A DNA stretch of 64,000 nucleotides from Candidatus Caldarchaeum subterraneum (GTDB lineage Archaea; Thermoproteota; Nitrososphaeria_A; Caldarchaeales; Caldarchaeaceae). Below the pieces are notes generated by a model. It did no database searches, was not told the DNA's origin, and saw nothing but the letters and a program-made list of their open reading frames with translations. The position numbers and the translations under genes are program-made. The stretch spans positions 515,709 to 579,708 of the forward strand of contig BA000048.1 of the NCBI GenBank assembly GCA_000270325.1, given 5' to 3'. Shown one piece after another: positions 322 to 23,577 of the stretch. The stretch's first letter is position 1. The number at the start of each line of letters is the position of its first letter.

Positions 322-693
322 TCACGGACTCGCTTTGCTGGCAACTTCTTTCAGCATCTTTAAAGCCTCCAACAGCATCTCCCGCGTCTCCCTCGAATCA
401 CGTGCAACAACCTCCAGAATCTCCAGACTCCTCTTGCTCTGCTCCGTCAAAACCTCCAAAACCTTCGTAACCCTCTCAACAAAAGCATCCATCCTGCTAA
501 CGAAATCCCTAAACTCCGACCGATAATCCCTAAACTCGCTACGAAAATCTCTGAACTCATTCCGGAAATCATTGAACTCACCTCTGAAATCGCGAAACTC
601 ACCCCTAAAGTCACGGAACTCATTTCTAAAATCTCTGAATTCTCCCCTGTAGTCGCGGAATTCCTCCCAGTATGTGAAGAATATTGCCTGCAT
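322..693 (-). CDS. Heptad-repeat protein (eight imperfect RDFRxEF repeats followed by a predicted helical tail), function unknown
   Basis: ORF table protein ...EFRDYRGEFRDFRNEFRDFRGEFRDFRGEFNDFRNEFRDFRSEFRDYRSEFRDF...; the reading frame stays open upstream to 823. Confidence 0.5.
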   Translation of the reverse strand: MQAIFFTYWEEFRDYRGEFRDFRNEFRDFRGEFRDFRGEFNDFRNEFRDFRSEFRDYRSEFRDFVSRMDAFVERVTKVLEVLTEQSKRSLEILEVVARDSRETREMLLEALKMLKEVASKASP

Positions 694-2533: not shown

Positions 2534-2926
2534 ATGGCTCGAAGGGATGAGGTGGAGGTGTTGAGGCGTAGGGGTGTGGAGTTTCTTGAGATGGCTGAGA
2601 AAGCGTTGGCAGACAAGAAGGTTGACTTCATGCTGGAGCAGGCTGCCCAGCTCTACCTCAAGTCCGCTCTTCTCAAACTAGTCGGAGAATATAGCAGGAC
2701 TCATAGCTTGAGGCGTCTGGTGTGGGAGCTGGCCGAGGCTTCGAGAGACGATGAGCTGAGAAAGTTTGGAGAAGAGAGGAGAAGTGTTCTCTCGAGTTTG
2801 GAGGATGTCTATATTATGGCGAGGTATTTTCCGAAGGAATATTCCGAGATGGATGCGGCGGAGTTTTTAGAAGTTGTCCGCGAGCTGTTTAGGCTGGTCG
2901 GCAGGGTGGCGGGTTTCCCAGCATGA
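2534..2926 (+). CDS. HEPN-domain protein (HEPN/MNT module)
   Basis: THSLRRL and C-terminal YIMARYFP motifs; overlaps the following nucleotidyltransferase gene by 4 nt. Confidence 0.65.
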   Translation: MARRDEVEVLRRRGVEFLEMAEKALADKKVDFMLEQAAQLYLKSALLKLVGEYSRTHSLRRLVWELAEASRDDELRKFGEERRSVLSSLEDVYIMARYFPKEYSEMDAAEFLEVVRELFRLVGRVAGFPA

Positions 2927-3258
2927 TAGAGACTGCGCGTAGGAGGGCTGAGATGGTTAGGCGCTGGAGAGAATTTGTCGGGATGTTGGCTGAGGCTGTT
3001 AGAAAGGTTTTGGGGGATGCGGATGTGTATGTGTTTGGCAGCGTTGTCACGGGAGAGTGTGTGGCGTCGAGCGATGTGGATGTCTTGGTTGTCTCGGACA
3101 GGGTTCCCGAGTCGATGCTTGAACGCGGTGCCTTGAAGGTGGAGATTGAAGATGCCGCGGGGCTTCCCGTCTACCACCCCTTCGAGCTTCACTTCGTCAA
3201 GCCCGATGAGGCCATGCACTATTTCAAGAAAATTGGGCGAAACATTTTGAGGGTTTAG
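2923..3258 (+). CDS. Minimal nucleotidyltransferase (MNT) partner of HEPN
   Basis: VFGSVVTGECVASSDVDVLVV = GS...DxD nucleotidyltransferase motif. Confidence 0.7.
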   Translation: MIETARRRAEMVRRWREFVGMLAEAVRKVLGDADVYVFGSVVTGECVASSDVDVLVVSDRVPESMLERGALKVEIEDAAGLPVYHPFELHFVKPDEAMHYFKKIGRNILRV

Positions 3259-4313
3259 TACCACTGGTCTTCTTCGCCGACGACTGTTTGGCTTCTTCTC
3301 CTCATTATGACTGTTGCGGCGACCGCGAGGACGGCTATGCCGGTTACGGTGCCGTAGACTATGAGCTGGGCTGTTTCATGTGATAGGCTGGGTGTGGTGA
3401 TTTCTGTGGTTATGGGGGTTGTGGTGGTTGTCGTGGTCGTTGATGTGGTTGCTTCGTTGATGCTCAGGGTTATGGTGTAGGGGCCTCCTCCGCCCACTCC
3501 GCCTTGGTTAGACACCCTGATGTAGTAGGTTTTCTCAGCTGCGTCCTGTGTTTCCAGGCTCACCGCCGCTTCACCGCTGGTGTTGGTTCTGTTGCTTCTA
3601 AGCCCGTAGCCTGTCTGGTCGAGGATGACGAGTTCATAGATGTTTCCAGGCTGTGTCGTCAGTGTCGCGGTTAATTGTTTCCCTTTTCCAAGCACCGCTG
3701 TGAGGACATATGTGTCTACGTAGTCTAGTCCTTCGCTGGAGTTGGTTAAATAGCCTGAGATGATGGTTGTTTCCCCTGTTCTCAACGCTCCCAGGGGGGT
3801 TGCTTTTTCGAGTTTGTCGGCGGCTTCTCTTCCACCTGTGTCCACTAGCCGCTCGATTCCCAGCGTGATGACGTAGTCGGCTTTGGCGGGTCTCGCTTCT
3901 GAGAATATTCCTATTTTGAAGCAGAGCGTGGTTGAGGTGTTTTCGCCGAAGTTGCTGTGTGCCCAGCTGTAGACGTACTCCAGCGGGCCTCCTGCCTGAA
4001 TGGTCTGCACTCCGCCTATGCGGGAGAACTGGCTGGGCCTTATCTCCCACATCAGCAACGTGTTAAACCCTGTTGACGTGTTTGTGGTAACGGTTACTCT
4101 GAGGACTAGGCGTTCACCGGGTCTCAGGTTCTCGAACCTGTAAAAATCCTCTCTAAGCCGTCCGGCGAGCGTGGCTTCAATGGGTGGAAGCGTGTCCCCG
4201 GCCAGGTTTATCCTTTTGTCTGTTGTGATGCAGGGGTCGCTTGTCTGAGCAGATACAGCTGTGAAGGCGGCTAACAAAACAACGATTGTCAGAAGGGCTG
4301 TTGTTTCACGCAT
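3255..4313 (-). CDS. Cell-surface protein with signal peptide, Thr-rich stalk and C-terminal TM anchor
   Basis: N-terminal MRETTALLTIVVLLAAFTAVSAQ, linker TTSTTTTTTTTPITTEITTP, C-terminal AQLIVYGTVTGIAVLAVAATVIMRRR; many N-x-S/T sequons. Confidence 0.6.
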   Translation of the reverse strand: MRETTALLTIVVLLAAFTAVSAQTSDPCITTDKRINLAGDTLPPIEATLAGRLREDFYRFENLRPGERLVLRVTVTTNTSTGFNTLLMWEIRPSQFSRIGGVQTIQAGGPLEYVYSWAHSNFGENTSTTLCFKIGIFSEARPAKADYVITLGIERLVDTGGREAADKLEKATPLGALRTGETTIISGYLTNSSEGLDYVDTYVLTAVLGKGKQLTATLTTQPGNIYELVILDQTGYGLRSNRTNTSGEAAVSLETQDAAEKTYYIRVSNQGGVGGGGPYTITLSINEATTSTTTTTTTTPITTEITTPSLSHETAQLIVYGTVTGIAVLAVAATVIMRRRSQTVVGEEDQWY

Positions 4314-4447
4314 TCCAGCTGGTTTTTTCCCCAGTTCCTAAAAACGTTTTCCGTTTTGATTTGTGTCGAAAATATCTCCTCTATACTTTGAGCTAGGGTT
4401 TTGACGGATTATAAAAAATTTGAAGGGGGTTTAAAAAAGGTGGGTGT

Positions 4448-7400
4448 TTATTTCTTTGGTGGTGCTGCTGGGTAGATGCCGAGGCGGCGTCCTCTCCAGC
4501 GGATGTATTCGCTGACGATGACGACTACGACGATGACCAGCAGTATGAGGCCGATGATCAGCGCGAGGAACGTGGCGAGGGTCATGGGTACGCCGAACAG
4601 TATGGTGTAGAGGTCGAGGACGATTGTTGCGCTTCTAACGCCTCTAGCTACGTTGGCTGAGTTGCTGAACTGTTCGTAGGATGCTCTTACTGAGTAGTCT
4701 GCGCCCACGACTTTGGAGAAGACCGCCGAACCGCTGGCGTCTGTGGCCGCTGTGGCTATTGTTGTTCCTCCTCTCACCAGCTCAACAATGGCGCCCTGTA
4801 TCGGCTGTCCTGCAGCGCCCTTGACAATTACGGCGATGTCGTATATGCCTGCCTGTATGGTTGCCGATGTCCGGGAGGCGGTGAACCTTACACGGTCTCC
4901 GCCGATAGTTGTGCCATCCTTGGAAACCTCTATCTGGTATTCGTTGTCGAGCGGTACTTGTCCGATGATGACGACGCCTTGGCTGTCTGTTGAGCCTACT
5001 TGTTGTCCGCCGAACCTTATGGCTGCGCCTGCCACGGGTCTACCGTCGAAGTCGACTACTGTCAGGGTTACGTCGTCTACGGGTATGACTATGCTGCCTC
5101 TGCTCTGTAGGCCTGCCGGCGTGTCTCTTACCGCTGCTCTCGCTGTTGTTCCGTATGGGCTGGTCCATTCGACGGTGAAGTCATAGGTTCTGCCGTCGGG
5201 TACGCGGAGGATTGTGAATATGCTGTCGGGTCTTAGCTGTATGTCCTGTTCTCTGACTAGGTTGGGTGAGACGCTTACTCTAGCGCCTGCCACGGGTCTG
5301 CCCTGTCTGTCGACGACGTTGAAGCTGAGGTCTCTGAGTGCGAGGACGACTGTGCCCTCAACGGTTCCGACGTTGGTTCTGCTGACGTCGAAGGTTCTTC
5401 TGCCGACTTCTTCACCGTTTGCGTCGGGCCAGAGGGCGACGATGTCGTAGGAGCTTCTGGCGAGGCGTTTGGCTTCGAAGATGGCTCCTTGTCCACGTAT
5501 GATGAAGTCGTCGGGCAGTGCTAGGCTGGGTGCGCTGAAGACGTATGCTGGGTCGGCTGGTCTCTGTGCGTCGCCGTAGACGAATCTTATCCTGAGGTCG
5601 AAGATGCGTGTGATGACGTCGAAGCTTCTGCCCCAGCCTGCCGGCGGGCAGCTGGCGAGTGCCTCTAGGACTCCTGCGGTGTAGTTGTATGAGCCATCTC
5701 CTGCATGTCTACAGACATCGGCTCGGAACCATCCGTCTCCCGTTGGCCAGGGTCCTGCTTCGGCTGTGTATGCGAAGCCGAGAGGTATGTCTGGTTTCTG
5801 TGTTTCCTGTGTGGTTTCGTCGTCTCTGCTGTCATATGCTATGGGCCATCTGGCGAAGCTGTTGACTGGCCATGTGGGTTCTCCGTTGGCGCCCTGTCCG
5901 AGGTAGAGGACTCTCTGGATGAAGACTCCTCCGGGCTTTCTAATGGGCATGGGCACTATTCTGCCGTCGGGTCCTGCATAGCTCCATGCGGCTGATTTGC
6001 CTGTCTGTGCGTCGATTATCTGGTAGAAGGCTCCGGGCAGTGGCCTCCCGTTGAAGTCGGTGATTCTGGCCGAGACGTTCTGGAACTCGAACATCTTGAT
6101 GAAGGGTCTGTGTGCTCTGTTGTCTGGGTCGTTGCTCACTACCGTGACCGTTGCGGTGCGTGCGACGCCTTCATATGGTCTGCCGTAGCCCATGTACTGT
6201 ATGCCTAGGTCTACGCCAGGCACCTGTAGCTGGTCGCCGACGTGTAGGTTTACGGGCTGTCCTGTGAGTGGGTCGATGGCTTGGCTGACCCAGTTTCTCC
6301 AGTAGTTGCTGGTTGTTCCTCTGTTGGGGTTGTCTGCGCCTGCTTGTCCTGTGCCGTCGTTGTACCATATGCTTGGTGGCGGTGAGACCTCGTCTATGAC
6401 GAGGGTGCTGCCGCCCCATATGACTGTCGAGGGTGTGTCTCCGCTGGTGACCGTTACGAGTCCAACTGGTTTGCCGGAGATGCATATGTTGACTGTCTTG
6501 TCGCCGACTGTGATGGTTCCCGCTGTTGTTACGGCGTCGATGGGTTTCGGTGCGAATGTTGCGCCAAGAGGTGGCACTATTCTACCTTTGACGATGTATC
6601 CTAGGAGCGGCCCGCAATCGTAGCTGCCGAGCTCGTAGTCGCCTACCTGCCAGAAGACGGGGATGTCGACGTCTGTGGCGTTGAGCTTGATGGCGACGAC
6701 TTTGCTGCCTGGTGTTGGTGTGGCTGTCCATGTCCGTGTCAACGCGTAGCCAGGTATCGGCTGGAACTGTCCTGTTCCTGTTGTTCCTCTGTAGAATGTG
6801 ATGTCGAAGGGCGGGTGTCCGAACAGCATCCACGCGTCTGGGAATTGGGCGGGTATTCTCCAGACCAGTTCATAGTGGTCGCGCTGCCATGCTCCGTTGT
6901 TATATTTTGGCGATGATGGGTCGATGGGTAGCTGGTCGCTCCATACGCTGATGCGGTACTGTATTCTGCTGTTTTCCTGGTTGGTGAGATGCGGGTGGCG
7001 TCGATCGTAGCCGGTCGGGACTGGGTTGTATGGCCATCCGTCAATCATTCTGCCGTCTTCATAGCTTGGGTAGGGTATGTCCCATGAGCGTGTTACATCG
7101 TCGTAGACCCATCTGCCGGCTGAAGAGTCGAATACCAGGTCCCAGTCGCTCTTGGTGAAGCGCTCTGATGTCGGTAGCCATGGGAGTGTGAGCTGGCCTG
7201 TTGTCCACTTGGCTGCTCCACGTGTCTCGGGTACGGCTGTGTATGTCCATGTTCTGCGGGCGTGGTCGACTGTTATCCTGCCTGGGAAGACTGTATTGCC
7301 GTCTGTTACGTTGAGCCACCAGATTCTTGCGTAGAGGTCTTTGACGGGTCGGTCTTTGTTGGCGCTTATGGCGAGGACGAATGTCACATCGGCGATGGCT

Positions 7401-10400
7401 ACTTTGTCAACCGAGTAGCCTCTCTTGGTGAGGTTGAAGGCGTCTTTGTAGACGATGCTGCTGTTGAGGTACCAGTAAACAGTCAACGTGTAGTTAACAA
7501 CGTTTGTCCCGAGGATGTTCTCCATGGCTTCCTGTGTCGGGTAGAGGAGTGTGAGGTTGCCGTCACGTCCTGTCTTGTAGAGAACTGAGGAGGAGCGATC
7601 CACTGTACCGCTATCGTCGTAGTATACGTCGAGCTGTACGACTGCGTATGGTATGGGTCTTGCGAGGTCTTCGTCTTTGAGGTTGAGGGTTATGAAGCCT
7701 ACCGGTATGGGTACTGTTACGACTTCTTTCTCGAACACCAGTGTTGTGGGTCTTGTCGGAACCTCGATGTACCTCTTTCCTTTGAATGGTGTTGATATCT
7801 CTTCGACTGCTCCGGCTGCGACCGCTTGCTCCCATCTCCATCTCTGCTGGTTCCAGAGGCCTTCATTGCCTACGACTGTGAAGTTGTGGGTGGGCCACTT
7901 GCCATTGGCTGTTTCGTTGACCGCTGGGTTGAAGAACTCTCTTATGAGGAAGCTGTCTCCTGGCCTAACGTCTCCTCCTGGGCTGGTTAGCGGTCCCTTC
8001 TGCGTTGTCAGCCATCCGCTGCCTGTTAGCCCTGCTTTGTCGTAGAATCTTGCCCATGGCTGTTCGCCTCTGGTGAACTCGAGCGGGTAGACGTAGCTGT
8101 AGAAGGTGAGGTCTTGTTTGCGGTAGGTGCCGTTCCACCAGATGTTGCTGCTGTGCTGGCTGTCTGCTTTGAGCCAAGTGGTTAGGAGGGTGTCTTCGGT
8201 CCATTTGCTGACGAAGAGCGATGAGAAGACTCCGTCTTCGGGTATGAACATCTCCATGTTGACGCCGTTGTCGTTGACTATGTGGTAGGTGGCGTTGCCT
8301 ATGCGGCGTGCTTCGTTGAGGTAGTCGAAGTCGCCGTCGACGATGCGCTGTTTGAAGGTGTGGGCCCATGTCAGCAGGTCTATCCTGACGGGTCCGCATG
8401 TCTTGTAGAGTGTTGCGTTGCCGATTGGGTTGAGGTTGGGGTCGGTGACGAATTCACCGTTCCATGTCATGTAGACTCTGAGGACGACTCTGTCATTGAC
8501 CTGGCCTGCAGGAGTCTTTCTGATGCTCGGTGGGCTGCTGTGGCTTGTCCAGTCAATCTTGATCTCATAGTCGACGGGCACGGTTCTGCCTGGCCACTTG
8601 CTGTTGCCTGGTGTCTGTTGCGTCTCGGGGTCTCCTGTTGTTACTGTTGTTACTGTTATGTTGTAGAGTGCGCTGGGCATCTTGTAGAAGACGTAGCGGA
8701 CGTCTCCGTAGGTCTTGAGGCCGTTTGACCTGGATATGCCGCCGAAGAAGTGGTCGATTCTGTAGCGGAAGAACTGGCTGAATGCGAGGGTTGTGTTGAA
8801 TTTGTCAGTGTTGGTGTCGCCTGTTGGGTCCATGGTTTCGAGGAAGTATAGGCGGCTGCCTGTTAGCGGGTGTACACCGACCCATGTGAGGGTGATGTTG
8901 AGCCTGGGTATCCTGTTGTCTTGGTTGTAGTCCCATGTTGTGAATATGAAGTCGTTGATGAGGGCTGTGAGTTTGATGGGTGAGTCGATGTTGCTGTCGA
9001 CGGTGAATGTTAGGCTTCCGTCGGGGTTGAGCGGCAGTGTGTCGTCGCCTATTCTAGCGTCTGTGAACTTGACCCATACACCCTTCCACCATACGCCGTC
9101 GATTGTGTATTGTCCTCCTGCTAGGTAGCCGAAGTCGAGGGCGCCTGTGCTGTCGAGCTGTGTTACGTAGGGTGTTGCGGGTGATGGTGGCACTACTTTG
9201 ACGAATGCTTCTCTGGAGAGTGGGCTGTTTTCGCAGTCGACGAAGACGAGCTTGACTTTGTAGATGCGGAGGACGAGGTCCTCCATGATGGTGTGGGTTA
9301 GTTTGTCGACGGTGGCTTCTCCGACGGGTGTGCCGTCGAAGGTGACGGTGACCATGTATGCGAGGTCTTCGGGCAGCTGGTAGAATACTGCCCATCCTTC
9401 GCCGTGCTGGTCATAGCTCCACTGTAGGCTGCCTGTGGATGGGAAGAAGTCGGGTATCAGGCTGGCTCCTGTCTTGGTTATTGGTGGTCCGTTGCCGCGC
9501 TGTAGGGTGATGGCTGTGTTGGCGGCTGGAGCCGGGTTGCCGAGGTTGTCAACAAGCCTATAGGCAAGATCGTGAACATTAGCCGTAATGTAGACGAGAC
9601 CCGCTCTTGCCAACGCTATGTCAGGAGCCTTGTGCGGCGCAAGACTCTGCAGTATTACTACCTGTCTCTTTGTGGCGTTGAGTATCGCGAATGTACCTGA
9701 CTGAGGCTGGCCTGAGAAGAGCATTCCTCCGACGAAATCATTGTAGGTGAACGCTGGATCCAATGTCTGTATGTCTGTGTTGTTTGATGATACAAGTGTC
9801 CTGATTGTCTGTGAACCCGGTGGCCCTGGCCATATCTCGACCTCGGCTGCACCGGTCTCGCCGGTAGTAGTTACGTTGAACCTTCTGATGGATGTGCTGT
9901 CTATTACCCCGTCTGGTCCGATGTCCTGCCAACCTGCGAGAGCGTAGGAAATGTTTCCGACTATCGGCTGGTTGGTGGCTGCGTCATGGTATTTGATGCT
10001 AGCTATAACGCCGCTGAAGGTGAAGGGCGTTCTTATGAAGCCGCCATGTGTTGCGTTTTCAACTATGTCTACTCGTAGGTCTACTCCAGGCGGATAGTTG
10101 ACGAATATGTCGAAGGTGCCTGTTAGCGGGTTGTAGTTCTGCAACCGCATTCCTATGGGGGTGTTTGAGGAGATCATCAGTGTAACCGGTCCACGGATTG
10201 GCCTCGGTGTTCCGAGGGGTCCTCGGCTGAGGGTTACGGTGACCTCGTTGTGTATCTTGATGAGGACTGTGTTGTTTCCTAGAACTACGTTCGGGACTAT
10301 CCATCCGTTGTATGTGGTTGTGTTGGTGGCTGCTATGGCGTAGGGGTTGCGTACTCTTACGCTGTCGACGAGGACTGCGGAGCCGCCGTATCCGTTTCTT

Positions 10401-12238
10401 GCTCCGCCTTTCCACTTGACCTGTATCTCGAAGCCGCCCCACCGCGGGTCATCGCTGAGCTGTCTTGTCTTCATGTAGGTGATTTCGGGAATGAGGGCGC
10501 TCCAGTTCATGCCCGCGTTTATCCATGGTCCCTGCCAGCTTCCGCCCCACGCCTGCTCAAAGTATCCGCCTGGTCTCCATGCTGGAGAGACGTCGTCTGC
10601 TGGGTTGAAGAAGTAGCTGGCGTTGAGGCTTCCTCTGAGGCCCCAGTTGGTTCCGTTGGGGAAACGGGCGAATTTGCTGTACTGGCCTAGGTATCCAGGC
10701 CACTTGTGCGGGTCGTTGGTGCAGCCGTCGCTGCCCGTGGTGTGTATGCTGTGGGCCAGGTAGTAGGGTACATCAGCTGATGTCTTGAAGTTGAGGGTGA
10801 CCTCTGCCCCGACCATCTTATCGCCTATCCATGGATGCTGGATGGCAAGGTCAGCGTCCTGCACACAGAACCGAGCATAAAACACCGTGTTATTCTCAAA
10901 GTTCGCTATCGATGGCCCAACGGTCTCAACATTCGCAGTAGTGTCAGTGCCCTCCCATGTTGGCAGCAAGGGCCTAGGTGGGTCTATATACACTGTCTCG
11001 TTAAGTACGAGGCTGAACGGCCCAGCGGGAACACCTGTGATGCCTCCCTGCGTAATCGTTGGGTTGACCGATGGGTTTGATGGATAGGCTCCGAACAGAG
11101 GCCTTATCTTGCCGGTGGCAGGGTCGGTAGCATACTCGGGAGCATTTGGACCACCTGTTTGGTTGTATTCGTTTCCTACGTAGAAGGTCTGGTTGACGAG
11201 TACGGTCTCCCACCAGACACGCTTGGTGGCGTTGAGATGCGGAGCCTCGATAAAACCGTTGTTATCTTCAGGGTCAGGAATACCTCCTTCGAATGGTTCT
11301 CTGGTGCCGAGGTTGATGCTCTGCAGCGGTATTGGGACGAGGCGGTTCTGTGCAAACTTGCCTGAACCCACACCAGCGGAGCGTGGATAGATTTCACGAG
11401 TGTATCTGCTCTGGCCATCATCTCCGGTTATAGCCGCCTGTATCAGTGATTGTGTGGAGCTGGCGTCTGTGTGGTCGGTGTCGTATATGAATATCGTCGC
11501 ATAAGTCAACACATCATTGGTGGCGTACCATGTGTGTTCGTGGAAGAGCTTGAAGATGTAGGCCGCGCGAGCCAACCAAGCCCTCTGAGGATCGTTGTGG
11601 TTAATCTGGAAAGTTATTGGACCGGATGCATAGTTTACGTTGTCCACGGGCCCTGACCCGAGAGGCGGAAAGATGTTCCAGTTAAATGGACCACCGTGGG
11701 TATCTTCTATGCCGTCATCGTTTATAGTGCTGTTGAAAGCTGAGAACCCGAACTTGCTTAGGAAGCTCGGTGTGGGGTTGACTGTTAGCCAGTAGACTAT
11801 GATTCCTCGGAATGGGTTGCCCTCGCCGATACACTCACCCTGATAGCTCTTCGCCTTCACAATAATGGTAACGTTCTCCCAGCCAGCAGGCCACGAAACC
11901 CTGATGAAACCAGTGCCGTTAGGACTGCCCGCTCTAATCGGACCCTCCCAACTATCCAAAGGCGCAGTACTTGCTCCACTTGGGTTCTTGAACTTATACA
12001 GCTCAACACAGACATTCGTCACATTATACCTATCAGCAAAGCCAACACCAGTCGGCTGCACAGGAGGAGCACCAGCTACATAAGGTGCACCATCCCACGA
12101 AGCCGTCACTATTTTGAGCCATGCGGTGTAGTTCGGCTGCGCAAACGCCGGCGTGACAATCGCTGCTCCAAGGAAAGCCGTCGGAAGCGCTAGCAGCAAA
12201 GCTAGCAAAACTGCCTGACTTTTTCCAATCATCAACAC
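4448..12238 (-). CDS. Giant (2596 aa) secreted, membrane-anchored surface protein; S-layer or adhesin candidate
   Basis: Uninterrupted 7.8 kb ORF; N-terminal signal peptide, dense N-x-S/T sequons, C-terminal repeats of the ...DGRPVAGA... type (carboxypeptidase-regulatory-like), C-terminal TM helix plus basic tail. Confidence 0.8.
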   Translation of the reverse strand: MLMIGKSQAVLLALLLALPTAFLGAAIVTPAFAQPNYTAWLKIVTASWDGAPYVAGAPPVQPTGVGFADRYNVTNVCVELYKFKNPSGASTAPLDSWEGPIRAGSPNGTGFIRVSWPAGWENVTIIVKAKSYQGECIGEGNPFRGIIVYWLTVNPTPSFLSKFGFSAFNSTINDDGIEDTHGGPFNWNIFPPLGSGPVDNVNYASGPITFQINHNDPQRAWLARAAYIFKLFHEHTWYATNDVLTYATIFIYDTDHTDASSTQSLIQAAITGDDGQSRYTREIYPRSAGVGSGKFAQNRLVPIPLQSINLGTREPFEGGIPDPEDNNGFIEAPHLNATKRVWWETVLVNQTFYVGNEYNQTGGPNAPEYATDPATGKIRPLFGAYPSNPSVNPTITQGGITGVPAGPFSLVLNETVYIDPPRPLLPTWEGTDTTANVETVGPSIANFENNTVFYARFCVQDADLAIQHPWIGDKMVGAEVTLNFKTSADVPYYLAHSIHTTGSDGCTNDPHKWPGYLGQYSKFARFPNGTNWGLRGSLNASYFFNPADDVSPAWRPGGYFEQAWGGSWQGPWINAGMNWSALIPEITYMKTRQLSDDPRWGGFEIQVKWKGGARNGYGGSAVLVDSVRVRNPYAIAATNTTTYNGWIVPNVVLGNNTVLIKIHNEVTVTLSRGPLGTPRPIRGPVTLMISSNTPIGMRLQNYNPLTGTFDIFVNYPPGVDLRVDIVENATHGGFIRTPFTFSGVIASIKYHDAATNQPIVGNISYALAGWQDIGPDGVIDSTSIRRFNVTTTGETGAAEVEIWPGPPGSQTIRTLVSSNNTDIQTLDPAFTYNDFVGGMLFSGQPQSGTFAILNATKRQVVILQSLAPHKAPDIALARAGLVYITANVHDLAYRLVDNLGNPAPAANTAITLQRGNGPPITKTGASLIPDFFPSTGSLQWSYDQHGEGWAVFYQLPEDLAYMVTVTFDGTPVGEATVDKLTHTIMEDLVLRIYKVKLVFVDCENSPLSREAFVKVVPPSPATPYVTQLDSTGALDFGYLAGGQYTIDGVWWKGVWVKFTDARIGDDTLPLNPDGSLTFTVDSNIDSPIKLTALINDFIFTTWDYNQDNRIPRLNITLTWVGVHPLTGSRLYFLETMDPTGDTNTDKFNTTLAFSQFFRYRIDHFFGGISRSNGLKTYGDVRYVFYKMPSALYNITVTTVTTGDPETQQTPGNSKWPGRTVPVDYEIKIDWTSHSSPPSIRKTPAGQVNDRVVLRVYMTWNGEFVTDPNLNPIGNATLYKTCGPVRIDLLTWAHTFKQRIVDGDFDYLNEARRIGNATYHIVNDNGVNMEMFIPEDGVFSSLFVSKWTEDTLLTTWLKADSQHSSNIWWNGTYRKQDLTFYSYVYPLEFTRGEQPWARFYDKAGLTGSGWLTTQKGPLTSPGGDVRPGDSFLIREFFNPAVNETANGKWPTHNFTVVGNEGLWNQQRWRWEQAVAAGAVEEISTPFKGKRYIEVPTRPTTLVFEKEVVTVPIPVGFITLNLKDEDLARPIPYAVVQLDVYYDDSGTVDRSSSVLYKTGRDGNLTLLYPTQEAMENILGTNVVNYTLTVYWYLNSSIVYKDAFNLTKRGYSVDKVAIADVTFVLAISANKDRPVKDLYARIWWLNVTDGNTVFPGRITVDHARRTWTYTAVPETRGAAKWTTGQLTLPWLPTSERFTKSDWDLVFDSSAGRWVYDDVTRSWDIPYPSYEDGRMIDGWPYNPVPTGYDRRHPHLTNQENSRIQYRISVWSDQLPIDPSSPKYNNGAWQRDHYELVWRIPAQFPDAWMLFGHPPFDITFYRGTTGTGQFQPIPGYALTRTWTATPTPGSKVVAIKLNATDVDIPVFWQVGDYELGSYDCGPLLGYIVKGRIVPPLGATFAPKPIDAVTTAGTITVGDKTVNICISGKPVGLVTVTSGDTPSTVIWGGSTLVIDEVSPPPSIWYNDGTGQAGADNPNRGTTSNYWRNWVSQAIDPLTGQPVNLHVGDQLQVPGVDLGIQYMGYGRPYEGVARTATVTVVSNDPDNRAHRPFIKMFEFQNVSARITDFNGRPLPGAFYQIIDAQTGKSAAWSYAGPDGRIVPMPIRKPGGVFIQRVLYLGQGANGEPTWPVNSFARWPIAYDSRDDETTQETQKPDIPLGFAYTAEAGPWPTGDGWFRADVCRHAGDGSYNYTAGVLEALASCPPAGWGRSFDVITRIFDLRIRFVYGDAQRPADPAYVFSAPSLALPDDFIIRGQGAIFEAKRLARSSYDIVALWPDANGEEVGRRTFDVSRTNVGTVEGTVVLALRDLSFNVVDRQGRPVAGARVSVSPNLVREQDIQLRPDSIFTILRVPDGRTYDFTVEWTSPYGTTARAAVRDTPAGLQSRGSIVIPVDDVTLTVVDFDGRPVAGAAIRFGGQQVGSTDSQGVVIIGQVPLDNEYQIEVSKDGTTIGGDRVRFTASRTSATIQAGIYDIAVIVKGAAGQPIQGAIVELVRGGTTIATAATDASGSAVFSKVVGADYSVRASYEQFSNSANVARGVRSATIVLDLYTILFGVPMTLATFLALIIGLILLVIVVVVIVSEYIRWRGRRLGIYPAAPPKK

Positions 12239-12255
12239 ACCCAGCCCAACAACCG

Positions 12256-12262
12256 CTATATA
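12256..12262 (-). promoter_or_regulatory. Putative TATA box (TTATATA) about 20-27 nt upstream of the giant gene's first two ATG codons
   Basis: Minus-strand read ggttatatagcgg...ATGCTGATG; spacing suggests a leaderless or short-leader transcript. Confidence 0.35.
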
Positions 12263-12289
12263 ACCCGTAACAGTCTAGAACCCCTCCAA

Positions 12290-12620
12290 AACTCTGGACA
12301 ACAACATCCAAAAAATACAAACAACAACACCCCCGTAATACCAAACCCTTAAAAACAAAACCCCAAAAACAGAAAAAACACCAAAAACCCCCAAAAAGCC
12401 AAAAAACAACACATTCTACAAAACTAGAACACACCAAAACACCCGCCAAAACAAACAACCAACGGCCAAACAACCCCACACAAAAAGGCCACGAAAATAT
12501 TTCCACAACCTGTTGTAAAACACCATAATCCTCTTCGCCAACCCTGCCCCTCATCTCTCCAAAGCCCACCTGAGCCACCGACCTCTCAACCCACTAAAGC
12601 CTATTCAACCACTTCTTCAA
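12290..12620. repeat. Low-complexity, strongly strand-asymmetric tract (A+C-rich, nearly G-free on + strand)
   Basis: Runs such as caaaaaatacaaacaacaacaccccc...aaaacaaaaccccaaaaacagaaaaaacaccaaaaacccccaaaaagccaaaaaac; the minus-strand ORF 12033..12578 over it is a compositional artefact. Confidence 0.6.
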
Positions 12621-13004
12621 GAAACATGAATACGTTCAGACATCTCCCGCCGTAAGACCACCTACAAAGCATAAAACTCTCCAACATCGACGTAGACCGT
12701 AGCCCCCCAATCAAGAGCTCCGTCTCAACAATGTCTCGGCTCTCGGACCACCGTGAACCTTCTTAACTAGCCTTACGGCCTACAAAGGGCTTCAAACAAA
12801 CAAAACCACGCTATCCGATTAGGTTAAGGCACTAGAGCTAAGCCTCTAAACATGACCTAGACATGCACGATGCAATACAATACTCTACAGCACTCTGCTT
12901 AGGCATAGACATAATCTCCTTCGTGTTGATTAACTAAAAAAGCCACTTATCATCTCGACATGAGTTCCTCTTTTTTGTAAGAGTGTTGGCTGGCTAACTC
13001 TGCA

Positions 13005-13457
13005 TCATAGCTCTCCCAATAGGGAAACATCCGTAACCACTTTTCCTTTTTGTCTAAGATCTTTATCGGCTGTGACGAGTTTTTCTCCTAATTTTCTTGA
13101 GAGCCAGAGATATGCTGAATCATATATCGTTAACCCCGATGTCACAGCTATTTCAAGCACTTCACTTGCTTCATTCCAGAGAACCGGGACCATATTTATC
13201 CCGAGAGCGCCTATCGATTTTAGAGCGCTGACTCCGTCCTCGAGAGTCAGCACGCTATTCTTTACTGCTTTTGATATTACGGATGCAAGCTCATAAATTA
13301 TTAGCGTGGGCGCATATGCTTTTACCCGGTCAAGGGCAATTGAATTCTTTAAGACTCTGGCCTCTTCCTCCCAAGGCTCGCCAGGTATAAACCATTTTAC
13401 TGCAACGCTCGCATCGATGACAAGTTTTATCTCTTTTCCCTCTCCTCCCTCAGCCAT
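13005..13457 (-). CDS. vapC: PIN-domain toxin (VapC-like)
   Basis: KLVIDASVAVKWF start with conserved Asp, PIN-like length, overlapping upstream antitoxin gene. Confidence 0.7.
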   Translation of the reverse strand: MAEGGEGKEIKLVIDASVAVKWFIPGEPWEEEARVLKNSIALDRVKAYAPTLIIYELASVISKAVKNSVLTLEDGVSALKSIGALGINMVPVLWNEASEVLEIAVTSGLTIYDSAYLWLSRKLGEKLVTADKDLRQKGKVVTDVSLLGEL

Positions 13458-13669
13458 CTAACAATCACCTCCGTCGGCACAACACCAGCCTTGCTTCTGA
13501 TCTCGTCTAGCTTCACAGCCGCCTCCTTTGCAAGCTCCTCCTTCACCTTCGCTTCTATGGCTCCCCGGATATACTCGCTCCAATCAACCTTCACTCGTCG
13601 CATTAATTGCCTAAGCTCTTCTGGAACCTTAACGGAAACATTGACAAGCTTACCCAGACAGCTCACCAA
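13427..13669 (-). CDS. vapB: Ribbon-helix-helix antitoxin (VapB/CopG-like)
   Basis: VNVSVKVPEELRQLMRRVKVDWSEYIRGAIEAKV is a typical RHH fold sequence; overlaps the PIN gene. Confidence 0.55.
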   Translation of the reverse strand: MVSCLGKLVNVSVKVPEELRQLMRRVKVDWSEYIRGAIEAKVKEELAKEAAVKLDEIRSKAGVVPTEVIVRWLREEREKR

Positions 13670-14442
13670 ATCGTAAAACCATTCGGTCTGACATATAAAC
13701 CTTAGACTCGAATCGATCTAAAGCCCTCTGAAGGCTCTAAGAGAGTCTAGAGAGCCTGTTATTATAGTTCTTGATTCTACTGGTGTTAGGCTGGTTCGTG
13801 GCTTGAGAGAAAATATGGTAAGAGGAGGTGCGTCAAGATACACGACGCGAAGACTGGGGAGACACTGGTGCTGAGATGTCTGGGATAAATATACTCCGAC
13901 CATTCCTTCTATGTCCTGAGGTAGCTAAGGTCGTGTTCCCTTATAGTTCTGACTCCCTGCTCCTGCCTAGTTACCCTTAGGTTCAAACCCTTCCAGCTAT
14001 CGTTAGAGAGCTCCAACTCAATGCCGCCAGCCCTAAACCCTATCTTGGACCAATCGCTGCTCCTCCTTAGCACCCTCAGTGTTGCCAAAAAGTCCTCCTA
14101 ATCCATACCTAGAAGCTCACACATCTCCCTGCAAACTCTTTCGATCTCCTCGACCGTAGTCATGAACCCAATCCCTTAACAGTATCCTCGTGGTCTCTCT
14201 CTTAAAATCTTTCAGGAGCATAGATCCAAAAACAATGCAATATTAAACGATGCCCAAACAATCTGGGTATACAACTTAGACGCTCGTTATATCCTCCCTA
14301 AGCCTTGTCAGCTCCTCGTCACATCGTCTAAACACTGGAAAAAGCGAGGCAACTCCTAGCAGATCATACAGCCAAAGGAATTAGGCCACAAGGCAAGTAT
14401 AGTTTAAAACTTATATATGCATGCACATGTATATGCGTAGGT

Positions 14443-14667: not shown

Positions 14668-15060
14668 ATGGTATGCCTAGATACTGACATAATCGTAGCC
14701 CTGCTCCGCGGGGATAATAAAGCCATAGAAACTATAGAGGAGCTGCAAAGAATGGGTATGCAATTTAAAACTACGATAATAACCGTCTATGAGCTTCTTA
14801 AAGGCGCAGCAATCTCAAGTAAATCATCTGAGAATATCAAGACAGTGAAAGAACTACTTCATAACGTAACCATACTGGGCTTAGACATAGACGCTTGCGG
14901 AAAAGCAGGCTTGATATACAGCGACTTGAGGCGGAGCGGAAAGATGATTAGCGAGTTCGACATATTAATAGCAGCCATAGTCCAACATAACAGAGAAACG
15001 CTAATAACCAGAGACAAACACTTCCAAGAAATCACAACAATCAACATAAGACAATGGTAA
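14668..15060 (+). CDS. vapC: PIN-domain toxin (VapC-like)
   Basis: MVCLDTDIIVALL... conserved Asp near N-terminus, 130 aa, AT-rich context. Confidence 0.7.
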   Translation: MVCLDTDIIVALLRGDNKAIETIEELQRMGMQFKTTIITVYELLKGAAISSKSSENIKTVKELLHNVTILGLDIDACGKAGLIYSDLRRSGKMISEFDILIAAIVQHNRETLITRDKHFQEITTINIRQW

Positions 15061-15408: not shown

Positions 15409-16500
15409 CTACTCAACGGTGGGTATGTCGAGAAGCGTAACCTCGGGTGAGCCGTCGTCGGAGATGCTTGTGAAAACCCTGTCGCTGTGTATGAGTGAGA
15501 GGTAGCTGAAGGTTCGTGAAACAGAGGCCGGTGTTGACCTGTATCCCTCCTCGAGGAGCCGGTATGCGGCGGCGAGGCAGAGAACGTTCAGCTTAACTTT
15601 CCCAAGCGCTCTATGCAGAACACGGTAGGCATCCAGCAGAGCCCGTGACTCGGCCTGCTGCCCCCCAATCCTGAGACCGTGAAACAGCGGAACAAATGCT
15701 GTGAAGAAGGTCTGGTCAACTCTCTCCAAAGGCTTCTCAAACACATCCGACAGCTCGCGGACATTCTTCAGAAACCTCTGCGAAACACTGTAACGAGCCC
15801 GCTTCACCCTCTCGAGAAAACCAACATCCACCAGCCACTCCAGCCGCGGCGGAACAAAGTGCCTATACTTGGCGTAGAGACGGCTCTTAATCCACTCAGC
15901 CTGCGAAGCATACTTCAGCCGCTCCTCCCGAAAACCCGAGGCCTGCTCAAGCTCCCTCTGAACCGATGCACGCCTCCTCTCCGGCATCCTCCTCAACATC
16001 CTCCTAAGAGCCTCGGGATACACCTCCTCCATCACCGCATACATGGCCTCGAGACGGCTGAACTCACGCATCCCAGCCAACCACTTGAGCATCCCAGAGA
16101 AAATGTAGTCTCTGTTCAGCAAGGCGTGGAGAAAGAGCGTCTTCTCAACATCTGTCAACGTCAAAACCTCTGAGAGATTGGCCATCCCCTCACCTGAGAC
16201 ATGCCGCCGCAGAGCCTCCGAAGAATTGAGACAGATATACGCCGCGCCATAGAGGCCTGGCCTTCCCGAAGCCCTGTCATAGAACCCCAGCTGCGCAGCC
16301 AGCTTGACGTAGTTGCGTGCGTTAACCTCGGTCCTGAGCATGCCAGGCATCTCCCCAACATCGTTAACCAAACTCCTGCACGTCTCCAGCAACACCGAGG
16401 CCAAATAGTCAGGTGAACGTGGCGAACCATCCTCGAGGATGCAGGCGATAAGCTTCAGGTAACCTAGTCGACAGACGTCGCCGTGAACCTCCGCTATCAC
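15409..16500 (-). CDS. Hypothetical protein, 363 aa, immediately downstream of and overlapping a methyltransferase gene; candidate restriction/effector partner
   Basis: Long ORF, mostly helical by composition; 4-nt overlap (16497-16500) with the upstream methyltransferase; no recognisable nuclease or ATPase motif. Confidence 0.55.
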   Translation of the reverse strand: MIAEVHGDVCRLGYLKLIACILEDGSPRSPDYLASVLLETCRSLVNDVGEMPGMLRTEVNARNYVKLAAQLGFYDRASGRPGLYGAAYICLNSSEALRRHVSGEGMANLSEVLTLTDVEKTLFLHALLNRDYIFSGMLKWLAGMREFSRLEAMYAVMEEVYPEALRRMLRRMPERRRASVQRELEQASGFREERLKYASQAEWIKSRLYAKYRHFVPPRLEWLVDVGFLERVKRARYSVSQRFLKNVRELSDVFEKPLERVDQTFFTAFVPLFHGLRIGGQQAESRALLDAYRVLHRALGKVKLNVLCLAAAYRLLEEGYRSTPASVSRTFSYLSLIHSDRVFTSISDDGSPEVTLLDIPTVE

Positions 16501-17693
16501 GCTATCCTCACCATCCTCCGTGGCTCACCCTTCGACAAAACAAGAACCTTCTCCCTGTCAACCCCCTGCCAAGACTTGAGATACATCAGATACTTGTGCC
16601 CACGTCTTATGCCGTCGCTTATGATGGCGCGGGCTGTGAAACCGCTTTTCTCAGCAGGCTCGACCAAAAGCTCCGCCAAATCCACCCGACGACCACCCGA
16701 CTTGACATCACCCACAACCAGCACACAGTATCCCCCAGGCTTCAGCATTCTGAAAAACTCATCCAAAACCCTCCCCATAAACTCGACATAACGTTTAACA
16801 GACTGGGTGGCGAAAAGCCGTTTACCGACAACACGGTAATCATGCCCGAGAAACCAGAGCCTCAGCCAGTTATCCCAAGCATAAGTCTGCAGGTTGAGGT
16901 AAGGCGGCGAAGTTACTATGAGGTCGACAGACTCATCCGCTATAGGCAGCGCTGATGCATCCATGTTGAAGGCGGCGCCCCTCGCCTCAGGCAACCCATC
17001 AGCCAAAACAGACTCAGCCTTCCTCAGCAAACAAGCCAAAACATTTCTAACAGGCTTCTTCAACCCATGCTCCGCAACATACCTTCTCATGTAGCGCGGA
17101 GCCATCGAGAAAGAGTGGCTGCATGGAACGCTCAAACTAATCTCGGAAGAACCATGCAGGATACCGAGCATACAGGCCTTCACAAAGTTCGTCACATCGT
17201 CCTCGGAGTCCAGAAGCAGTTCTCTTACGGCCAGTATCTGTTTGAGGGTTTGGGGGTGGTAGAAAGCTCGGACATCTTCGTCGACGTCGTAGACCGAGAC
17301 TGCGTCAGGCCTCATCACTCTCGAAGCCTTCTCAACCCAGCTCCTAACATCTCTGAACATAGCCGGCTTCACCTTCGCACGGGTAACCACATAGGCCTCT
17401 GGAGCAAGGTCGTTTCCCACGCCGACGCGGCCAGTCAAACACGCCTCAAGCGGGGCCGTCCCCTTGCCCGAAAACGGGTCAAGCACAAGGTCGCCGCGCT
17501 CCGAAAACCTCGTTACAACCCAGCGAGCCAACGCCGGCGGAAAAGAGCCCGTCCTCGACATGATGCGGTGAAGCGAGTGACCCCAGCTCCTGCCAAAACC
17601 TTTCCACGAGTCGGAAACCTCGCCGCTGGAAATGTAAGCTATTTCCGTCATCAAAAAACTCGGACCAACCTGCTCCACGCTATAATCATTCAC
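16497..17693 (-). CDS. Amino-methyltransferase (N6-adenine/N4-cytosine DPPY family), motif I before motif IV
   Basis: FPPALARWVVTRFSERGDLVLDPFSGKGTAPLEA (motif X/I) followed about 185 aa later by VDLIVTSPPY (motif IV) and RMLKPGGYCVLVVGD. Confidence 0.7.
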   Translation of the reverse strand: MNDYSVEQVGPSFLMTEIAYISSGEVSDSWKGFGRSWGHSLHRIMSRTGSFPPALARWVVTRFSERGDLVLDPFSGKGTAPLEACLTGRVGVGNDLAPEAYVVTRAKVKPAMFRDVRSWVEKASRVMRPDAVSVYDVDEDVRAFYHPQTLKQILAVRELLLDSEDDVTNFVKACMLGILHGSSEISLSVPCSHSFSMAPRYMRRYVAEHGLKKPVRNVLACLLRKAESVLADGLPEARGAAFNMDASALPIADESVDLIVTSPPYLNLQTYAWDNWLRLWFLGHDYRVVGKRLFATQSVKRYVEFMGRVLDEFFRMLKPGGYCVLVVGDVKSGGRRVDLAELLVEPAEKSGFTARAIISDGIRRGHKYLMYLKSWQGVDREKVLVLSKGEPRRMVRIA

Positions 17694-21420: not shown

Positions 21421-22287
21421 ATGGCTCTGTGTTATTCATATGTTATGAGCTGGGGGAGTCTTCCAACCGAGCCCAAGGTTGAGGGCGAGTTCGTTGTTGA
21501 GCGTCGTGCGGTGAAGCCGGGTCGACGGTTCGAGGGCCTGAATGTGTTTGTGACGGGTGCTGGACGCGGTTTCGGCAGGCTGATTGCTCTGGGGTTTGCG
21601 CGCGAAGGTGGCAACGTGGTTGTTCACTACAACAAGTCAGCCGAATCCGCGCTGCAGACGGCGAAGGAGATTGAGCAGATGGGTGTTAGAGCCTATACTG
21701 TCAAAGCTGATGTTACGAAGTGGGATGAGGTGAAGCAGGCTGTTGAAAAGACTTGGCGAGAGTTCGGGCCCATCGACGTGTTGGTTAACAACGTGGGAGA
21801 CACGGCGCCGGGTCAGATGTCGTGGCGGGAGATAACGGAGGAGAGGATTGACCATGTGCTTGCGGTAGATATCAAGGGAACGTTGTTTATGACGCATGAG
21901 GTTGGGTCTCGGATGCTTGAGCGAAAAAAGGGTGTGATTGTCAACATCTGCTCCAACGTCATCACCACCGGAAGCCCGCGTGCGCCACAGTACGCGGCCT
22001 CCAAATATGGTGTTCTCGGTCTCACCAAATCCTACGCAAACGCTTTCGCGCCCTATGTGAGAGTGAACGCCGTCGCGCCGGGCTACATGGAGACAGAGTC
22101 GCTATTATCGAGGCCCGACTGGACAGCAGGTAGAAGGAAATGGGTTATCGAGCATACTCCTCTCCGCAGGATAGCGAAGCCCGAGGACATCGTGCCTGTT
22201 GTGCTCTTCCTCGCCTCGGATGATTCGATACACATGACAGGAAACGTCGTAATCTGTGACGGCGGATTCAGTATGCCGGGTGCCTAG
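21421..22287 (+). CDS. Short-chain dehydrogenase/reductase (SDR)
   Basis: VFVTGAGRGFGRLIA Rossmann motif, YAASK catalytic motif. Confidence 0.75.
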   Translation: MALCYSYVMSWGSLPTEPKVEGEFVVERRAVKPGRRFEGLNVFVTGAGRGFGRLIALGFAREGGNVVVHYNKSAESALQTAKEIEQMGVRAYTVKADVTKWDEVKQAVEKTWREFGPIDVLVNNVGDTAPGQMSWREITEERIDHVLAVDIKGTLFMTHEVGSRMLERKKGVIVNICSNVITTGSPRAPQYAASKYGVLGLTKSYANAFAPYVRVNAVAPGYMETESLLSRPDWTAGRRKWVIEHTPLRRIAKPEDIVPVVLFLASDDSIHMTGNVVICDGGFSMPGA

Positions 22288-23577
22288 ATGACCGCCACGA
22301 TACAGGATGTTTTAGCGAAGATTGATGTGGAGAAGACGATTAAGCGGACGCTTGACTTGGCTAACATAGAGAGTCCGACGGGTTTCGAGGGCGAGTGTGC
22401 AGAGGCTTATGCGAGGATGATGGAGGAGGTGGGGATGCGTGTCAAGCTTCAGGAGGTTGAGCCGGGTCGTCTCAACGCGGTCGGGGTGCTGCCAGGTAAA
22501 GGCGGCGGCCCATCGCTGATGTTCAACGGACACCTCGACACATCTTTCTCTCCACGCGAACCCGCCGAGATACTTAAAGCGATTTCACCGGTTTACAGGC
22601 TTGAGCCGCCGTGGGCCTATCGAGAAGGTGACTGGCTGTATGGCATGGGCGTTTTCAACATGAAGGGCGCGTTGGCGGCGTATGTCTCGGCTGTCGAGGC
22701 GCTGCAGAACGCTGGTGTGGAGCTGAAGGGCGACATCATGATTGCGGGCGTTGTTGGCGAGATTGAGAAGACACAGGTCGACCAATACAGGGGTGCACAG
22801 TACAGGGGCTATGGCACGGGAACCGCATACCTCGTAACACACGGCGGCGTAACAGATTTCGCCATCCTCGGCGAGCCAACAGGCCTCCGCCTCATGCTGA
22901 CACACTTCGGCTCCGTCTGGGCAAAAATGTATCTCAAAGGCCAGATGGTTCACACAGCCCATTCCACCGGCGTAACCAACCTAATTCTCCGAATGAACAG
23001 GGTGCTGAACGTTTTGGAGGAGTGGATTCCAAAGTATCAGGAGAGGTTCAGCCATCAGGGGGTGAAGCCGACGGTTAACATCGGCTCGATAGAGGGTGGA
23101 TGGCCTTGGAGATGCTCCCGGACACCGTGGTTTTGCAACCTATACGTCGACCTTCGGTATCCGCCGCCATACTCGGCCGTGGACGTTAAAGAGGCTCTCG
23201 AGGAGATGTTGAATGAGGTTGAGAAACGCTATGGCTTCAAGCCGATGCTCGACATCTATGTGAGCGATGCATGGGCCACTGTTCCCGAGGACTCGGCTGT
23301 GGTGAAGGCGATTGACGAGGGGCATAAAGCTGTGTTTGGCACACCTGCGGAGCGCGTTGTTTTTTCATGGTCATCCGACGCAAACGTTTTGACTAGAAAT
23401 GGTGTGGTGGCGGTCAACTACGGACCATCAGGAGGCCCCGGCAAAGAGATGCGTGGAACACTCTACATACCCAACCTCATCGCATGCACCAAAGTCTACA
23501 CCGTCGCCAGCATGAACCTATGCAACATGGACAGGAAAAAGGTAAAACAGCGCTTCACAATAACCTACGGTGAGTAA
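22288..23577 (+). CDS. M20-family metallopeptidase/deacylase (ArgE/DapE-like)
   Basis: NGHLDT metal-binding motif; size 429 aa. Confidence 0.65.
   Translation: MTATIQDVLAKIDVEKTIKRTLDLANIESPTGFEGECAEAYARMMEEVGMRVKLQEVEPGRLNAVGVLPGKGGGPSLMFNGHLDTSFSPREPAEILKAISPVYRLEPPWAYREGDWLYGMGVFNMKGALAAYVSAVEALQNAGVELKGDIMIAGVVGEIEKTQVDQYRGAQYRGYGTGTAYLVTHGGVTDFAILGEPTGLRLMLTHFGSVWAKMYLKGQMVHTAHSTGVTNLILRMNRVLNVLEEWIPKYQERFSHQGVKPTVNIGSIEGGWPWRCSRTPWFCNLYVDLRYPPPYSAVDVKEALEEMLNEVEKRYGFKPMLDIYVSDAWATVPEDSAVVKAIDEGHKAVFGTPAERVVFSWSSDANVLTRNGVVAVNYGPSGGPGKEMRGTLYIPNLIACTKVYTVASMNLCNMDRKKVKQRFTITYGE

Follow-up and report, generated by a model that had tools for sequence, protein, structure and literature searches.

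In most archaea, the main wall is a surface layer (S-layer), and for most uncultured lineages its genes have been unidentified. The closest described counterpart of the locus treated here comes from Pyrobaculum arsenaticum, whose S-layer has been solved and is built from PySLP, a protein of 2667 amino acids (aa) and 292 kDa that mass spectrometry showed to be more abundant than any other envelope protein and that is, in Pyrobaculum, the largest protein of the genome (Caspy et al. 2026, bioRxiv 10.64898/2026.08.21.746120; UniProt A0A7L4PAH2; PDB 33FC). In PySLP, the signal peptide has 23 aa, the lattice is formed by an N-terminal region, eight C-terminal immunoglobulin (Ig)-like domains act as a pillar, and there is a transmembrane (TM) helix; PySLP hexamers form a layer reaching 37 nm from the membrane (10.64898/2026.08.21.746120). 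PySLP-like proteins combine tandem Ig-like domains with a membrane-proximal beta-hairpin, a TM helix, and a basic C-terminal tail, which ends in lysine in every Thermoproteales homolog examined; they match the Ig region of SlaB, and the exposed face of PySLP diverges faster (10.64898/2026.08.21.746120). Here we analyze a stretch of 64,000 nucleotides from Candidatus Caldarchaeum subterraneum (contig BA000048.1, positions 515,709 to 579,708; called the window below), in which a gene for a giant surface protein is followed on the same strand by a gene for a small, membrane-anchored partner. We propose that the giant protein is probably the S-layer protein (SLP) of this organism, a single polypeptide of the PySLP type, accompanied by a lineage-specific, membrane-tethered accessory.

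Two further systems serve as points of comparison. In Sulfolobus acidocaldarius (PDB 7ZCX, 8QOX), slaA and slaB follow each other in large-then-small order on one strand, as do the two genes here, and an Ig-rich, glycosylated canopy forms a lattice held far from the membrane, a further likeness. SlaA has no anchor, whereas the big protein of the window has its own TM helix; SlaB combines Ig-like domains with a long coiled coil, a feature missing from the small protein, whose fold is a different one, a PPC-like jelly roll. Nitrosopumilus maritimus, from a sister class in the same phylum, has an Ig-rich SLP (NmSLP; PDB 8C8L) with an adjacent gene for a smaller anchored partner, Nmar_1546, which has been treated as a SlaB homolog (10.64898/2026.08.21.746120). 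NmSLP is much shorter than the big protein, with about 10 Ig domains; it gave no sequence or profile match to the big protein and was absent among the 50 best Foldseek matches listed.

The giant protein as an S-layer protein candidate

By exact-sequence look-up, the big protein is 100% identical to the Ca. Caldarchaeum subterraneum protein P0001, deposited as BAJ50413.1 and BAJ47616.1. The latter accession is a Caldarchaeales PySLP-like S-layer candidate of Caspy et al., a remote homolog recognized via HHpred, and HHpred searches with SlaA, SlaB, and NmSLP as queries likewise gave the big protein as the candidate for this order (10.64898/2026.08.21.746120). The assignment is thus already in the literature by accession, still as a computational one, and our analysis, which gives the Caldarchaeales (Aigarchaeota) a concrete S-layer candidate, mostly re-derives it. 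What we add is a conserved partner that is not discussed in the preprint, a near-invariant anchor motif, a polarity in the distribution of glycosylation sequons, and a conserved G+T-rich tract upstream of the gene. The homology to PySLP and the function of PySLP come from the preprint, and the open reading frames, topology signals, fold classes, conservation, and synteny are our own observations. Since the accession coincides with the preprint's candidate and the architectural signature of PySLP is found here, the two lines together support the S-layer reading. Chance is ruled out for the big frame, which stays open over 7.8 kb and has more than 100 full-length homologs.

The architectural agreement extends over the whole chain. 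PySLP and the big protein are of similar length (2667 versus 2594–2596 aa), begin with a signal peptide that is followed by an N-terminal lattice region (presumed in the case of the big protein), and contain sequons and a more divergent exposed part; at the other end, both have a C-terminal pillar array of Ig-like domains, a hairpin with an aromatic residue, a single TM helix, and a basic tail ending in lysine. Apart from the signal peptide, the sole strongly hydrophobic stretch of the big protein lies at aa ~2553–2575. The two also differ: the number of domains is higher in the Caldarchaeales proteins, large insertions occur within their domains, and a crown domain is limited to Pyrobaculum SLPs (10.64898/2026.08.21.746120). 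The window protein contains 10 cysteines against 14 in PySLP, and the gene neighborhood is not the same, a tandem jelly-roll partner being the only conserved neighbor here.

Several methods converge on a serial arrangement of beta-sandwich domains in the C-terminal part. Pfam recognizes CarboxypepD_reg at aa 2468–2528 (E 1.6e-13), and hhalign finds four mutually related units of ~85 aa across aa 2205–2541 (probability 82–95%), with weaker copies of the repeat at aa 2048–2082, 1508–1593, 987–1056, and 884–977, the last two marking a pair of Ig-like units at aa 884–1056. An AlphaFold2 (AF2) model of aa 1397–2596, computed from an alignment of 27 homologs, consists of serial all-beta domains, of which the last four (aa 2205–2541) reach a predicted local distance difference test (pLDDT) score of 80–88; two short strands at aa ~2545–2552 form a hairpin that leads directly into a long TM helix. 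Foldseek searches with this model retrieved Ig arrays of Gram-positive pilins and adhesins as the best matches (BcpA, RrgB, SdrD, TIE, GhpA), and SlaB with E 1.8e-6, consistent with the match of PySLP-like proteins to the Ig region of SlaB noted in the preprint.

The anchor is the most constant part of the protein. Hairpin, TM helix, and tail are almost invariant across ~80 intact homologs, even at 29–35% overall identity, and an aromatic residue (Y or F) occupies the hairpin position with at least 90% conservation. The last residues of the big protein are ...VIVSEYIRWRGRRLGIYPAAPPKK before the stop codon, that is, a basic tail ending in lysine, and the 21-aa tail motif common to the SLP family reads SEYIRWRGRRLGIYPxxPPKK. 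The final lysine is present in all intact homologs but P0071, whose tail is still basic (...PPPKKPIP), and no non-basic tail was found among them. With this motif, such genes could be sought in metagenomes. We considered whether the conserved C-terminus might be a sorting signal of the archaeosortase type and set the idea aside, the tail being long (21 aa) and conserved; PGF-CTERM-type signals are not known to have so long and conserved a tail.

The N-terminal region differs from the array in both glycosylation potential and rate of change. The big protein contains 36 N-X-S/T sequons against 18.2 +/- 3.9 in composition-matched shuffles, and 0 of 5000 shuffles reach 36. The excess is found in aa 1–1650 (33 versus 14.7 expected), and the last 950 aa hold 3 versus 3.5 expected; the enrichment is 2- to 3-fold and confined to the N-terminal two-thirds, a polarity seen equally in seven homologs. 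Among close homologs, the N-terminal half is ~66% and the C-terminal half ~79% identical, and lineage-specific inserts occur at aa ~650–870. Because sequons and divergence share this polarity, the sequence predicts an outward, glycosylated N-terminal canopy above a tightly packed, sequon-poor pillar, and so indicates which half of the big protein would face outward.

The family is coherent and specific to one order. Full-length homologs are all 2000–3500 aa long and collinear from end to end down to 29% identity, with insertion hot spots at about aa 420–443, 650–873, and 1539–1548. A profile scan with the anchor motif over genome contigs, one genome per GTDB species, yielded 37 loci, all of Caldarchaeales type, spanning Caldarchaeum, Pelearchaeum, Calditenuis, Wolframiiraptor, Terraquivivens, and HR01; since they fall in 37 different assemblies, there is one anchor-bearing copy per genome. 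The window has no second copy of the motif. The scan reached Caldarchaeales only and no Thermoproteales, and when the protein database was searched with the anchor-module profile, with Thermoproteales as the target, nothing came up but short fragments belonging to this family. NCBIfam had no match for the big or the small protein, and phmmer and profile searches of PDB sequences with both found no S-layer protein, only marginal transthyretin-like matches. The initial annotation of this stretch had named homology to a non-S-layer protease or adhesin as a finding that would speak against the S-layer reading; no homology of the big protein to proteases or dedicated adhesins was found. Its suggestion that this could be the principal envelope protein is probably right, given the accession's place in the preprint's PySLP-like list and the architecture of the family.

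Two relatives have a different build. P0105 (locus L041, 5267–10747) and P0107 (L042, 1163–5776) have only the N-terminal ~1370 aa in common with the big protein; what follows this half is a beta-helix (PF13229), a linker rich in Thr, and a TM anchor of another kind, and there is no partner gene nearby. Their sequences suggest that stalk and anchor can be exchanged as modules beneath a conserved N-terminal module.

A proposed model for the Caldarchaeales S-layer

By analogy with PySLP, we propose the following model. The big protein would be exported by Sec, and its heavily N-glycosylated N-terminal ~1500 aa would form an outward lattice or canopy, carried across the underlying space by a pillar of Ig-like/transthyretin-like domains made from the C-terminal ~1000 aa. 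Hairpin, TM helix, and basic tail would fix each chain in the cytoplasmic membrane, and pillars of six bundled chains are probable, by comparison with Pyrobaculum. Lattice formation in Ca. Caldarchaeum subterraneum itself is what we infer from this analogy. The small protein would be a co-inherited accessory, its two jelly rolls held by a flexible linker of ~25 aa and a separate TM helix, and short enough to fit beneath the canopy. The conserved partner, the anchor motif, and the polarity of sequons and divergence make the envelope of an order of uncultured thermophiles testable, by cryo-electron tomography or mass spectrometry on existing enrichments.

A number of points weigh against this interpretation. 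The preprint's Caldarchaeales assignment consists of HHpred and AlphaFold only (10.64898/2026.08.21.746120); no Caldarchaeales envelope is covered there by images, proteomics, or expression measurements, and our literature searches found no such data either (the main text of the study of Aigarchaeota by Beam et al. 2015, PMC4681859, makes no mention of an S-layer). The link to PySLP is likewise the preprint's HHpred result, and our own phmmer, HMMER, and BLAST searches did not join the big protein to PySLP. The AF2 model is confined to aa 1397–2596, and the hairpin is predicted with moderate confidence (pLDDT ~50–70). Pilins and adhesins head the Foldseek list, and tandem Ig arrays are equally typical of such proteins and of S-layers. 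As to the partner, its putative association with the SLP is drawn from synteny, and three Calditenuis loci as well as L034 have no partner in the vicinity of the SLP gene. Moreover, T-runs after the stop codon of the big gene and a TTTTTA box before the ATG of the small one suggest that the partner is separately transcribed from its own promoter, and with a probable promoter of its own its stoichiometry may differ from that of the SLP.

The partner protein and alternative explanations

What is the role of the small protein? Of 40 Caldarchaeales loci, 36 have a homolog of it downstream of the SLP gene and on the same strand, usually within 250 nt; in six loci, 1–4.4 kb of other genes lie between the SLP gene and the partner. 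The other neighbors of the pair differ between loci. In Ca. Terraquivivens yellowstonensis, the partner MCL7394656.1 numerically adjoins MCL7394657.1, which is the preprint's SLP candidate there. The partner family is essentially restricted to SLP-adjacent genes: a word-indexed search gave 18 matches, and HMMER, run exhaustively over 1.84 billion representatives, found 40, of which about 17 are full length (336–414 aa). There is no second copy in the window.

The small protein has a signal peptide ending VSA/Q, and its predicted structure contains two jelly rolls of the PPC/collagen-binding-domain type, which are also GOLD-like. The fold is shared with the collagen-binding and PPC domains of collagenases and proteases (ColG s3a/s3b, 5IKU; 5SV5; the C-terminal jelly roll of Tk-SP, 3AFG); unlike these, the small protein has no Pfam PPC match and no attached protease, and it is tethered by a C-terminal TM helix. 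Pfam has no match for it at all, and PF04151 (PPC) remained unmatched at E <= 1 in all 18 family members; its UniRef label is "Peptidase C-terminal archaeal/bacterial domain-containing". Cys28, Cys131, the GGxGGGG.Y loop, and RRR after the TM helix are invariants of the family, and the succession of TM helix, RRR, and aromatic C-terminus is kept in nearly all complete partners of the 36 partner-bearing loci, the exceptions being L011 and L012, with RLRE for RRR and ending in Ala or Val, and L018, which ends in Glu. The linker is Thr-rich only in Caldarchaeum. Derivation from domains of the big protein was addressed by a profile–profile test, which found no relation (probability 1%), and there is no sequence or profile match to SlaB in PDB. 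Judged from its synteny, the partner most likely helps to assemble or stabilize the layer, binding the base of the pillar or glycans of the SLP.

It is possible, if doubtful, that the small protein instead acts on its own at the surface, as a receptor or as a protein that binds, for example, substrates, ions, or glycans; it would then have no structural part in the S-layer and be co-located with the SLP gene for co-regulation or through genomic inertia. Jelly rolls of the PPC/collagen-binding and GOLD-like kinds are generic binding modules, and the TATA-like box and T-runs between the genes, the intervening genes in six loci, and the absence of the partner beside the SLP gene in Calditenuis would all fit such a protein. 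Nevertheless, the two genes stay together in lineages whose SLPs share just 29% identity and whose neighbors are otherwise all different, a family so nearly restricted to SLP-adjacent genes is not what an independent receptor would lead one to expect, and the partner is missing beside the two beta-helix variants, which lack the pillar and anchor module.

A second alternative concerns the big protein, which could be a giant adhesin or matrix fiber of Ig-like domains that forms no lattice, the real S-layer being another protein or absent. The pilin and adhesin matches at the head of the Foldseek list, the insertion hot spots and the range of family lengths (2000 to 3500 aa), and the replacement of the C-terminal half by a beta-helix and a different anchor in P0105 and P0107 are in keeping with an adhesin, as is the occurrence of Calditenuis in filamentous streamer mats with closely associated cells (PMC4681859). 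We nevertheless consider it unlikely: there is one copy per genome throughout the order, so little variation in TM helix and tail would be unusual in an adhesin, and collinearity extends from end to end down to 29% identity. In addition, HHpred homology to an experimentally identified SLP has been reported, and it was this protein that the SlaA, SlaB, and NmSLP queries returned for Caldarchaeales (10.64898/2026.08.21.746120).

An extended version of the proposed S-layer is more speculative and, in our judgment, quite unlikely. The Caldarchaeales layer could be a two-subunit PySLP variant in which the partner is obligatory at the pillar base and the tails of both proteins couple the lattice to a crenactin/arcadin cytoskeleton. 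Such a cytoskeleton has been reported in Thermoproteales, marine Culexarchaeia, and Caldarchaeales (PMC9723716), and it suggests itself as the internal partner because its phyletic range is the same as that of PySLP-like proteins. An arcadin-1 gene (PF18653) lies 3–5 kb downstream of the SLP pair in four of 42 loci, all of one clade (L002, at 21973–22308, L028, L032, and L035); we take this proximity as a hint, not as linkage. If the coupling were true, exoskeleton and cytoskeleton would be linked mechanically, in the service of a rod or filament shape; the cells of Calditenuis are thin filaments (PMC4681859).

Finally, a two-component S-layer of the SlaA/SlaB type, with the big protein as canopy and the small one as membrane stalk, is very unlikely: it would account for the slaA–slaB-like order of the genes, for the predicted secretion and membrane anchoring of both products, and for the status of Nmar_1546 in the related Nitrosopumilus as a SlaB homolog in the preprint, but the big protein carries a nearly invariant TM anchor of its own, the C-terminus of that same protein matches the Ig region of SlaB, the small protein is related neither to SlaB in PDB by sequence or profile nor to the big protein, and two ~4-nm domains on a ~25-aa linker would be too short for a canopy at tens of nanometers. 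The resemblance to SlaA/SlaB drawn in the initial annotation therefore survives in part: the large-then-small order on one strand stands, whereas the big protein has a TM helix of its own and the small one has no coiled coil and a different fold. The proposed pairing of canopy and stalk falls, since the big chain itself joins canopy, pillar, and anchor and the small protein has no profile relation to it; the module equivalent to SlaB is in effect fused into the big protein.

Gene features and surroundings of the pair

The features of the locus are collected in Table 1. Both open reading frames, the signal peptides, the sequon-rich ectodomain, the C-terminal beta-sandwich repeats, and the TM anchors had been described in the initial annotation, correctly in every respect.

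Table 1. Features of the SLP gene, its partner, and the window (positions of the window; aa numbering of the respective protein)
Feature	Position	Strand	Basis or remark
Giant surface protein gene CSUB_C0553	4448..12238	(-)	Open reading frame and translation; GTG 12238 gives 2596 aa, the more probable start ATG 12232 gives 2594 aa
Signal peptide of big protein, aa 1-33 (...TPAFA/QPNYT)	12140..12238	(-)	Hydrophobic N-terminus, AxA-type cleavage motif
N-terminal ~1480 aa, presumed outward lattice-forming glycosylated region	7703..12139	(-)	Sequons, divergence; boundary approximate
C-terminal ~1030 aa beta-sandwich (Ig-like/transthyretin-like) array, presumed pillar	4616..7702	(-)	
Anchor module: hairpin aa ~2545-2552, TM helix ~2553-2575, basic cytoplasmic tail SEYIRWRGRRLGIYPAAPPKK	4451..4615	(-)	AF2 and conservation
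TATA box TTATATA	12257-12263	(-)	~28 nt upstream of ATG 12232; read from sequence
G+T-rich upstream tract	12240..12580	(-)	Coding strand A 12%, C 7%; ~340 nt
Intergenic spacer	4314..4447	(-)	T-runs after big stop codon; TTTTTA box 4339-4344, ~28 nt before small ATG
Small partner gene CSUB_C0552, 352 aa	3255..4313	(-)	Open reading frame and translation; = P0109, BAJ50412.1 and BAJ47615.1
Jelly-roll domain 1, aa ~26-156, invariant Cys28 and Cys131	3846..4238	(-)	AF2 pLDDT ~90
Jelly-roll domain 2, aa ~165-288, invariant GGxGGGG.Y loop aa 272-279	3450..3821	(-)	
Thr-rich linker aa 289-311, TM helix aa ~312-337, RRR motif, short tail with aromatic end	3258..3449	(-)	
Reverse gyrase	58655-62182	(-)	zf_Rg, helicase, Toprim, and topoisomerase domains

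The version of the big protein in GenBank has 2586 aa and starts 10 codons further in. Because the TTATATA box, which is also found in L008 and L011, is suitably spaced from the upstream ATG, that codon is likely the true start, with a leaderless mRNA. Upstream lies the G+T-rich tract, whose proximal 200 nt are 89–98% identical to L008, though the two big proteins share only 76% identity; L001, L002, and L032 have the tract in a weaker form. The tract may be a promoter-upstream element. A 181-aa open reading frame listed at 12033–12578 is a compositional artefact.

Around the pair are housekeeping genes that are syntenic with L001: archease with an RNA methyltransferase to one side and, to the other, a DNA methyltransferase with a phosphoribosyltransferase. 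The DNA methyltransferase (N6_N4_Mtase) and an adjacent ~363-aa protein without Pfam match, upstream of the SLP gene at 15409–17693 (-) and at L001 5336–7608, may constitute a restriction-modification-like pair. Toxin–antitoxin modules occur on both sides of the S-layer genes: HEPN/NTase at 2534–3258 (+) on one, and on the other a possible RHH with PIN at 13005–13669 (-), the PIN domain spanning 13005–13457, and a second PIN at 14668–15060 (+). The Caldarchaeum locus L001 has none of these modules but is syntenic in other respects, so that their insertion looks recent.

Proteins made of charged repeats with a short period, which may be coiled coils, are encoded in the window at 322–693 (-), where about ten "EFRDFRx" units follow one another, in L002 at 16695–17570, and in L020 at 12554–13696. 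The gene in L002 lies between the SLP gene and the partner; that in L020 is on the strand opposite to the SLP gene, ~2.2 kb downstream of it, with no partner nearby. In L003, a 492-aa polytopic membrane protein is encoded after the SLP pair (16196–17674), and its sequence, judged by eye, resembles a Wzx-type oligosaccharide flippase; if it is one, it would fit glycosylation of the SLP. Since the window encodes a reverse gyrase, which marks (hyper)thermophily, the organism is thermophilic.

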